From positions 64,001 through 128,000 of the forward strand of contig JBDHWW010000002.1 of assembly GCA_039810425.1 (NCBI GenBank): a stretch of DNA of 64,000 nt. The letters are read 5' to 3'. Both the position numbers and the translations under genes were made by a program. Of this stretch, positions 22,547 through 24,019 are shown one piece after another. Each line of letters starts with the position of its first letter. Position 1 is the stretch's first letter. The notes below the pieces were generated by a model. The model worked only from the letters and a program-made list of their open reading frames with translations. It had not been told where the DNA came from and did no database searches. Source of the stretch: Pseudobdellovibrionaceae bacterium (GTDB lineage Bacteria; Bdellovibrionota; Bdellovibrionia; Bdellovibrionales; Bdellovibrionaceae).

Positions 22547-24019
22547 GTGGTCGCTAAAAACGTAAAGAAAAAAACACCCTTTGAAGTCGAGCCTGGCTTC
22601 TACCTAGAAGACAACCGCAACCAACGGGCTGTCGTCCCCGTCACCAAAGAAACTCTTGAAACCAAACACGCAGCCATTATGCCTGAATGGGTGGTCGAAG
22701 GAAAAAGCGTACTCGATTTGGGCTGCTGCCTGGCGGCTACGGGACATTGGTGTCTTTCTTATGGCGCAAAAAAGTACACTGGCGTGGAACTCCAGCCCGT
22801 CTATGCCAAAAAAGCCAAAGAGCTTCTTGGCAAGCATTGGTCTAAGGATCAGTTTAAAATTGTCCAATCGGAAATTTCTGATTTTCTCGATGAAGTCAAA
22901 AAAGATGAATACGATATCGTGATGATGGCTGGCGTGCTTTATGTCTTCCTCGACTACTTCTCAGTTCTGGAGAAAATGGCCTATGCTTCGAAGGAATGGG
23001 TTCTGCTGGAATCCATCATGCCACAAAAAAATTTAGATCCAGAAACTCCATATGTCGAATTCGTGAACAAGCAAACCATCACCTTACCGAACGGGCAAGA
23101 ACGCGCACGCGGTATTGGCAGTCGTGTGAGTCCCGGCGGCTTAAAGATGGTTATGGAGCACTTTGGTTTCACAAGCCAAGAGGGTATTATTACCCCGGCT
23201 GCGGTTAAAGACACTCACGATGCTTTCAACGAAGTAATTCCGGGTTGGAAATCTCCGGTGCGTTTTATGATGCGCTTTCAAAAAAGTGGCGCAAAAGTCG
23301 CGGATTTATCCACCGAGCTCAAAACGGGTAGATTCAAACAGCCTAAAGCCGGCTTCGACTCCTACAAGCCCGGAACGAAATTGAAAGCCGGCTCTTGGCA
23401 GTTTAACGACATAGTCGCCGATGAGTTTGAAAATATCGCACTGACTTCGATTCCCCGCTACAAAGAAGTCATCGGCATGTGTGTCGAACTCGCCGCCAAA
23501 GCATATCCGGATAAAAAGTGCCGTGTTCTGGATGTGGGTTCTGCCATTGGCAAAACCATGGACGAATTCCATAGCAACGGATTCAAAGACGTTTGGGGCG
23601 TTGAAAAGTCCGAGGCCATGATCAAGGGGTCTAAATACCGTGATCATGTTATTCACTCCGACACTTTCCCGCCTGGCCAAAAGCCCTTCCACATAGTGTG
23701 CGCGAACTGGACACTTCATTTCGTGAAAGAGCGCCGGGCTTATTTGAAAGATATCTACAATGGCCTGGAGAAAGATGGCTTTTTAATTTTGTCTGATAAA
23801 ACTCAGGGAAATCCATTTCTTCTTGAGCTGTATCATGATTTTAAGCGCCGAAATGGCCTGACAGAGCAGCAGATTGCAGACAAAGCGGAATCTATCAAAG
23901 GGGTTCTGGAACCTTATCCTTTGACTTGGTATTTGGTCGAATTGAAAAACATCGGTTTTAACGAGGTTCACGTGATCAATGCCTACTATCACTTCACAAC
24001 CTTTTTGGCGCGCAAGTAG
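22547..24019 (+). CDS. Fusion of a CmoB-like (carboxy)methyltransferase and a CmoA-like carboxy-SAM synthase domain
   Basis: N-half VLDLGC, GVLY, VLLES and PVR resemble CmoB. C-half WQFNDIVADEF..SIPRY, NWTLHF and HDFKRRNG resemble CmoA (WTFDERVAEVF..SVPGY, NFTLQF, HDFKRANG). Confidence 0.75.
   Translation: MVAKNVKKKTPFEVEPGFYLEDNRNQRAVVPVTKETLETKHAAIMPEWVVEGKSVLDLGCCLAATGHWCLSYGAKKYTGVELQPVYAKKAKELLGKHWSKDQFKIVQSEISDFLDEVKKDEYDIVMMAGVLYVFLDYFSVLEKMAYASKEWVLLESIMPQKNLDPETPYVEFVNKQTITLPNGQERARGIGSRVSPGGLKMVMEHFGFTSQEGIITPAAVKDTHDAFNEVIPGWKSPVRFMMRFQKSGAKVADLSTELKTGRFKQPKAGFDSYKPGTKLKAGSWQFNDIVADEFENIALTSIPRYKEVIGMCVELAAKAYPDKKCRVLDVGSAIGKTMDEFHSNGFKDVWGVEKSEAMIKGSKYRDHVIHSDTFPPGQKPFHIVCANWTLHFVKERRAYLKDIYNGLEKDGFLILSDKTQGNPFLLELYHDFKRRNGLTEQQIADKAESIKGVLEPYPLTWYLVELKNIGFNEVHVINAYYHFTTFLARK

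Follow-up and report, generated by a model that had tools for sequence, protein, structure and literature searches.

A CmoB-like and CmoA-like single-chain fusion beside a chorismate mutase in Bdellovibrionales: a candidate enzyme that makes and uses carboxy-SAM

We analyzed a 64,000-nucleotide stretch of a Pseudobdellovibrionaceae genome (assembly GCA_039810425.1, contig JBDHWW010000002.1, positions 64,001 to 128,000 of the forward strand; hereafter, the window), in which a single open frame with a GTG start (22547..24019, plus strand) encodes a 490-aa fusion of a CmoB-like and a CmoA-like domain. An AroQ chorismate mutase (CM; 22247..22543, plus strand), the only CM found in the genome, precedes it, and three bases separate the CM stop codon, which ends at 22543, from the GTG. 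Divergent from the CM lies a DAHP synthase with a type I-beta catalytic barrel (21254..22066, minus strand), and a membrane protein (19870..21294, plus strand) is kept upstream of the cluster in the source genome (G000) and in genomes G002 and G005. By eye the membrane protein looks like an acyltransferase of the MBOAT kind, an idea to which Pfam gave no support. On the other side of the fusion, the plus-strand run continues with a 240-aa protein of cluster c20/c147 (24040..24762), whose relatives lie ahead of the PP-loop gene at loci of Bdellovibrionales, phages and Patescibacteria alike, and with a PP-loop protein bearing the motif SGGIDS (24749..25864), its paralogue of about 30% identity (25868..26908), a 196-aa protein found only in Bdellovibrionales loci (26880..27470) and, as the last gene of the run, an acyl-carrier-protein-like gene (27454..27798; PP-binding, with a weak DltC match). 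A cupin of cluster c5 (27795..28451, minus strand) converges on this run. Neither PP-loop copy in the window has a Pfam match at cut-off, and PDB matches have E values of at least 0.07; the SGGxDS motif is invariant or nearly so, and the family profile reaches clusters that match Asn_synthase. By this profile chaining the first PP-loop protein is asparagine-synthetase-like, a predicted ATP-dependent amide ligase.

The initial annotation had read the fusion as one frame with two SAM-fold domains starting 3 bp downstream of the CM, and both points are borne out, the latter by the coordinates and the former by Pfam Methyltransf models, which match twice, and by an AlphaFold model built from a 72-row alignment (pLDDT 94.6, pTM 0.75), which places two Rossmann SAM folds at residues ~10–250 and 280–490. 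The N-domain (22547..23296, plus strand; aa 1–250), a short class I methyltransferase fold, is a predicted alkyl (carboxymethyl or methyl) transferase. The C-domain (23384..24019, plus strand; aa 280–490), which had been claimed to start at about 23390 and was found to start near 23384, is CmoA-derived and a predicted carboxy-SAM synthase. The nearest named relatives are labelled Bdellovibrionales, and 74 of the 77 homologues cover at least 91% of the query. The protein is a member of neither curated family, CmoA or CmoB, and on the best reading it would work like the CmoA/CmoB cascade. Our literature search, which lacked most subscription papers, returned no description of it.

CmoA ancestry of the C-domain is supported by both sequence and structure. 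Residues 280–488 align to CmoA/YecO at E values of 1e-17 to 7e-14, and E. coli CmoA (PDB 4GEK, 4IWN) is the best structural match (Z 25.8, rmsd 2.3 over 207 residues; Z 25.5 in a search of 48,161 chains), sharing the CmoA fold with its helical lid, the residues conserved in the family and the SAM-contact positions Y39, D62, N132, F137 and D/E164. The 28 reference CmoAs to which we compared it comprised the E. coli protein, seven annotated phage proteins, L072, L073 and 18 proteins from genomes of the same phylum (17 of these 18 loci have a cmoB match); biochemically proven among them are only E. coli CmoA and SpCmoA of phage S-B43. The C-domain keeps 27 of the 31 columns that reach 90% conservation or more among these references, including the lid lysines K165, K185 and K198 as well as S35, and equivalents of F20, F28, Y39, N132 and F137 are likewise kept. 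The four lost columns are S66 (Ala), Q136 (His), L202 (Ile) and E164, whose replacement by Asp is the one substitution that the CmoA family allows (PMC3663124). The ancestry implied by the earlier statement that this domain closely follows CmoA stands; the closeness was overstated, since identity is only ~28%, the score against the CmoA model TIGR00740 is half the cut-off (96.7 against 193.3 bits) and Arg199 of CmoA corresponds to Ala447. The second CmoA model, PRK15451, also scores below its cut-off (61.6 against 285). In a quick, unrooted tree without outgroup, built from 66 rows (48 of the 171 family rows and 18 of the 28 references), the family forms a branch separate from all reference CmoAs (SH-aLRT 95–98). 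As a separate matter, one family of the same phylum carries canonical cmoA in 61 of 100 genomes (L190–L207, with a cmoB match in 17 of 18 loci).

Arg199 forms a salt bridge to the carboxylate of carboxy-SAM in CmoA (PMC3663124), and we had considered its loss a knock-out argument against synthase activity. We dropped that argument, and the loss need not be fatal, because SpCmoA, a proven and highly active carboxy-SAM synthase (PMC12783734), also lacks Arg199. The gene of Synechococcus phage S-B05 that is 100% identical to SpCmoA encodes Glu199 together with Arg203, and judging from the alignment this Arg at i+4 appears to replace Arg199. The position of SpCmoA Arg203 is Lys451 in the fusion and Arg in the G002 orthologue, and reads K, K, K, R, K, Q and K in seven members of the Bdellovibrionales clade. 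Arg at 199 or 203 occurs in 27 of 28 reference CmoAs compared to 23 of 171 family rows; Arg or Lys is found in 113 of the 171. Five phage CmoAs have Arg203 and no Arg199 (L153:3022-3717, L154:2992-3687, L151:4980-5666, L072 and L073), among them the gene identical to SpCmoA, and the CmoA of Pseudomonas phage SM1 has neither arginine.

Elsewhere in the active site the family departs from CmoA in a consistent way. F133 and Q136 of CmoA are W388 and H391 in the fusion, with Trp at the first position in 171 of 171 family rows and His at the second in 170 of 171, two replacements that on alignment evidence reshape the predicted pocket. Position 31 is Glu in 103 of 171 rows. The pocket of the Bdellovibrionales clade is the most CmoA-like, with Ile at position 31 in six of seven proteins and Ser at position 35 in all seven, a serine that the family as a whole rarely keeps (10 of 171 rows). 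The lid lysines specific to CmoA hardly vary across the family (K165 in 168, K185 in 171 and K198 in 170 of 171 rows).

The N-domain, as far as its alignments indicate, is only loosely CmoB-like. CmoB models are the most frequent match of N-domain family members (16 of 29, with UbiG at 13 of 29), hhalign against E. coli CmoB, the tRNA U34 carboxymethyltransferase, gives 96% probability over 151 columns, and the profile match covers the CmoB core, residues 110–269. Scores against the CmoB models are far below their cut-offs (PRK15068, 20.5 against 209; TIGR00452, 16.2 against 275), CmoB comes behind unrelated methyltransferases when the PDB is searched with the profile, and it was not among the best 50 VIA rows. 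Foldseek lists CmoB chains at E ~1e-10 with the whole two-domain model, rather than the N-domain, as query, and Atlas neighbours of the N-domain include short Methyltransf_9 clusters. The initial annotation had rightly noted that the long N-terminal region of CmoB is missing: the domain of 100 residues is absent, and Lys91 is a gap in 72 of 72 aligned rows. Its proposal that GVLY is kept also holds, with residues 129–132 aligned to CmoB 197–200. The equivalence of a P-x-R motif (237–239) with CmoB Arg315 is weak, because it appears in the MAFFT-add alignment alone and the HMM and hhalign alignments end short of the motif. The Tyr200 equivalent, Y132, is present in 51 of 72 rows and R239, the C-terminal Arg, in 68 of 72. 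These two residues had been offered as evidence of carboxy-SAM recognition, but in CmoB they are dispensable, as the Y200A and R315A enzymes stay active, whereas K91A abolishes carboxymethyl transfer and leaves methylation (PMC4482062). Ahead of the N-domain fold we found a near-invariant motif, D22-x-R24-x-x-R27 (D22 and R24 in 136 and R27 in 126 of 141 rows), and Y132, E155 and R239 are also listed as near-invariant.

The CM keeps equivalents of R11, R28, K39, D48, R51 and E52, and has Val in place of S84 and Ile in place of Q88. Ser84 and Gln88 are important in the E. coli enzyme (PMC4281200), and AroQ types that are poorly active or regulatory likewise lack them (PMC4281200, PMC5526877). 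Five CMs adjacent to TrhP-like genes that we aligned also lack Gln88. The source genome, 99.88% complete, has the aroB, aroA and aroC families; the chorismate synthase, EPSP synthase and DHQ synthase families are all represented both in it and in G005, and each of the two genomes has a single CM. Searches of these two genomes for prephenate dehydratase, prephenate dehydrogenase and U32 proteins (PF00800, PF02153 and PF01136, a set that does not extend to periplasmic-type cyclohexadienyl dehydratase) returned nothing, and among the families tested the source genome has no other prephenate consumer. In G002 the cluster lies at a different genomic site, beside groESL, and has its own CM in addition to a housekeeping CM–prephenate dehydrogenase frame and a prephenate dehydratase; there the CM stays with the fusion although the DAHP synthase, adjacent to the CM in G000, G005 and L160/L162, does not. 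Another contig of the source genome encodes a further DAHP synthase (G000:C69:10975-11772), which shares 79% identity with the one in the window.

Relatives provide a control for the meaning of a lone CM. Among 17 of their 19 short stand-alone CM loci (two near contig starts and four long fused frames were left out, and the kin are not independent), 15 adjoin prephenate users: seven adjoin TrhP-like genes (492–527 bits, cut-off 534), five have a large U32 protein as neighbour or one gene away, three adjoin prephenate dehydrogenase, and two adjoin neither. A lone CM in this lineage thus usually marks a prephenate consumer. The 12 of 17 loci at which stand-alone CMs (L133–L149) lie beside TrhP-like or large U32 hydroxylase genes are of interest in their own right, and suggest that these CMs have been retained for a single purpose, providing RNA hydroxylation with prephenate. 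Supply of prephenate to the fusion is favoured because the source genome has no other consumer among those tested and the lone CMs of relatives adjoin prephenate users, and the prephenate link drawn in the initial annotation is now better supported than by the sequence with which it began. CM adjacency is not a trait of the whole family: a CM profile finds it in 3 of 148 loci (L080, L160 and L162, of which the last two may be one organism; many of the 148 are short or cut), and with G005 added all cases belong to the Bdellovibrionales clade. Of 14 carriers among the Patescibacteria/Gracilibacteria, two encode a CM, compared with 9 of 151 in the background, the metagenome-assembled genomes being incomplete. 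In one Saccharibacteria genome the split pair (L157, G063:C32) coexists with chorismate synthase, EPSP synthase and a CM, the last an enzyme that few genomes of this class encode (9 of 151).

The pair of domains is a widespread module, fused or split, in phages, Patescibacteria and Proteobacteria. The 78 viral loci divide into 35 fused, 23 split, 15 C-only (including six weak giant-virus matches and two CmoA-like proteins) and 5 N-only, and the 49 genome loci into 12 fused, 9 split and 28 C-only. These counts include near-duplicates, and the genome scan used the C-domain pattern only. A single-sequence viral scan and an N-domain search of cultured phages gave no match, and the N-domain profile retrieves 225 clusters (50% identity) at E <= 1e-30. 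Carriers include phages, Patescibacteria, Gracilibacteria, Alpha- and Gammaproteobacteria and, as C-only copies, marine cyanobacteria. In the lineage of the source genome the fusion is patchy: three of 61 related genomes, which share one genus, carry it, and among 401 genomes sampled across the phylum two have it at full length. Obligate pairing of the two domains is ruled out, as an N-family gene turns up in just one of the 21 genomes that carry a C-only locus, and function may vary within the family.

Of the 79 two-domain loci, 38 have AsnB-like/PP-loop genes, which are commonplace in these phage regions: 28 of the 58 viral loci and 10 of the 21 bacterial ones, the latter within three genes of the module. 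The other 41 have no AsnB-like gene within the sequence span examined. A c5 cupin lies beside the module in 10 of 21 bacterial and 3 of 58 viral two-domain loci. Natural fusions join the N-domain to an AsnB-like PP-loop domain (P0158) and the C-domain to a cupin (P0078). At four Patescibacteria/Gracilibacteria loci (L081, L085, L093 and L104) the module lies near YcaO, nitroreductase and PQQ-propeller genes, surroundings that look like peptide-modifying machinery. In Okeania, Dapis, Trichodesmium and related cyanobacteria (L116–L128), the genes clustered with the C-only copy encode further methyltransferases, 2OG oxygenases, TauD, sulfotransferases and a member of the mandelate-racemase family.

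We propose, with a probability of roughly 0.45, that the fusion makes carboxy-SAM and uses it on an acceptor other than tRNA, and that amide ligation follows. The C-domain would carboxylate SAM, taking the CO2 from prephenate that the neighbouring CM provides, with Lys451 (Arg in G002) standing in for Arg199 as the i+4 Arg may do in SpCmoA; the N-domain would transfer the carboxymethyl group, with R24 and R27 possibly taking the place of CmoB Lys91; and one or both neighbouring PP-loop enzymes would amidate the new carboxylate, by analogy to CmoA-CmoX-CmoY. The acceptor would most likely be a small molecule or peptide handled on a carrier protein. Of the corresponding proposal in the initial annotation, the prephenate link has gained support, and against the proposal stand the absence of the decisive residues, CmoA Arg199 and CmoB Lys91, and the confinement of the CM neighbour to one clade. 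The altered pocket, the occurrence of Arg at 199 or 203 in so few family rows and the many C-only genomes without partner or CM weaken the make-and-use reading.

Known systems offer partial parallels. Phage CmoA-CmoX-CmoY (Synechococcus phage S-B43; PMC12783734) shares with our cluster a CmoA homologue that lacks Arg199 and has a basic residue at i+4, a phage distribution and, as predictions in the case of the fusion, a non-tRNA use and a nearby asparagine-synthetase-like ligase. Its i+4 residue is Arg rather than Lys, its transferase is a C5 DNA methyltransferase rather than a class I CmoB-like fold (PMC12783734), and the ligases linked to the fusion belong to a different, longer family. E. 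coli CmoA differs from the C-domain in the replacements given above, in its place in the tree and in having no second methyltransferase fold attached, and CmoB shares with the N-domain its core profile match and the Tyr200 equivalent. TglE/TglF (3-thiaglutamate) and MccS/MccB (microcin C-like) likewise make and use carboxy-SAM in a dedicated cluster on a non-tRNA acceptor (PMC10491745), a likeness drawn from the published description; their synthase genes are separate, TglF keeps the Lys91 that the N-domain lacks, and the available part of PMC10491745 describes neither a synthase–transferase fusion nor a cluster-linked CM for them.

A serious rival, if on the unlikely side, holds that neither domain does more than methylate, with an anionic small molecule or peptide as substrate; the CM would then feed another enzyme of the cluster or regulate the neighbouring DAHP synthase. 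Absence of both decisive residues agrees with plain methylation, as do an invariant His after motif IV and the C-only copies, whether in genomes without partner or CM or in cyanobacterial clusters rich in methyltransferases and oxygenases. Carboxylate O-methyltransferases are also close structural neighbours (PMC11408123): CysG and BelI are the second-best fold match of the C-domain (Z ~24), although identity is 16–20% and their His-His-Asp metal motif (PMC11408123) is not matched, the fusion having Leu-His. The near-invariance of the CmoA-specific lid lysines counts against simple methylation. For the CM as regulator, the precedent is that weak AroQ domains are known to regulate DAHP synthase (PMC5526877) and that the cluster CM lacks Gln88; however, the CM remains with the fusion in G002 where the DAHP synthase does not, and the TrhP-adjacent CMs lack Gln88 as well. 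Somewhat less probable is that the C-domain binds prephenate as CmoA does and performs other chemistry on it, for instance methylation of prephenate or a derivative, within a cluster that builds a prephenate-derived product whose later intermediate the N-domain methylates. The linkage to CM and DAHP synthase, the absence of other prephenate sinks among the families tested, the conserved lysines set in a changed pocket (W388, H391, Y462) and the adjoining ACP, ligases and cupin all fit such chemistry. We found no precedent for it in the literature searched, the geometry of CmoA disallows O-methylation of prephenate (PMC10491745), and the CmoB-like partner would be left unexplained.

On the question raised earlier of separate canonical cmoAB genes, model searches find the fusion to be the genome's only match to CmoA or CmoB models. 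This is half of what the initial annotation had set against its own reading, and a TrhO-like gene is present along with U34 tRNAs for Ala, Leu, Pro, Ser, Thr and Val, so that the fusion could be imagined as a pared-down cmoAB that converts TrhO-made ho5U into the cmo5U34 of tRNA. We regard this as improbable. The acceptor is probably not tRNA, because the N-terminal domain of CmoB is missing together with K91, the distribution is patchy (the TrhO-like gene is also found in G001, which has no fusion) and the recurring neighbours are ligases and cupins; moreover, the phylum's canonical cmoAB (family f22) falls on a different branch.

If the fusion does make and use carboxy-SAM, it would add a large family, the 225 clusters of the N-domain profile, to the few natural carboxy-SAM users named among the cited papers (CmoB, TglF, MccB and CmoX), change the sequence rules by which carboxy-SAM enzymes are recognised, and provide a one-polypeptide carboxymethylation catalyst of a kind so far engineered (PMC7496830). 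As a more tentative extension, the family may represent an undescribed branch of carboxy-SAM biochemistry, in which synthase–transferases, single-chain or split and lacking both CmoA Arg199 and CmoB Lys91, occur in hundreds of clusters of phages and small-genome bacteria and yield small molecules or peptides that are carboxymethylated and then amidated, and in which Bdellovibrionales without Phe/Tyr synthesis keep a CM only as fuel. Should both domains merely methylate, an unannotated phage-associated biosynthetic module would remain.

Two further features of the window lie outside the plus-strand run. From 27795 to 36292 on the minus strand, the convergent cupin is joined by an unknown gene, a rhodanese, a fusion of membrane and PQQ-propeller segments, and EF-hand-like and prepilin-like genes, a stretch that is syntenic in G002 and G005 over the span compared and has a GC content of 44% against 49% for the genome. 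At about 18000–18420, the ORFs have the look of shadow frames, produced by a minus-strand structured RNA that, by resemblance, may be RNase P RNA.
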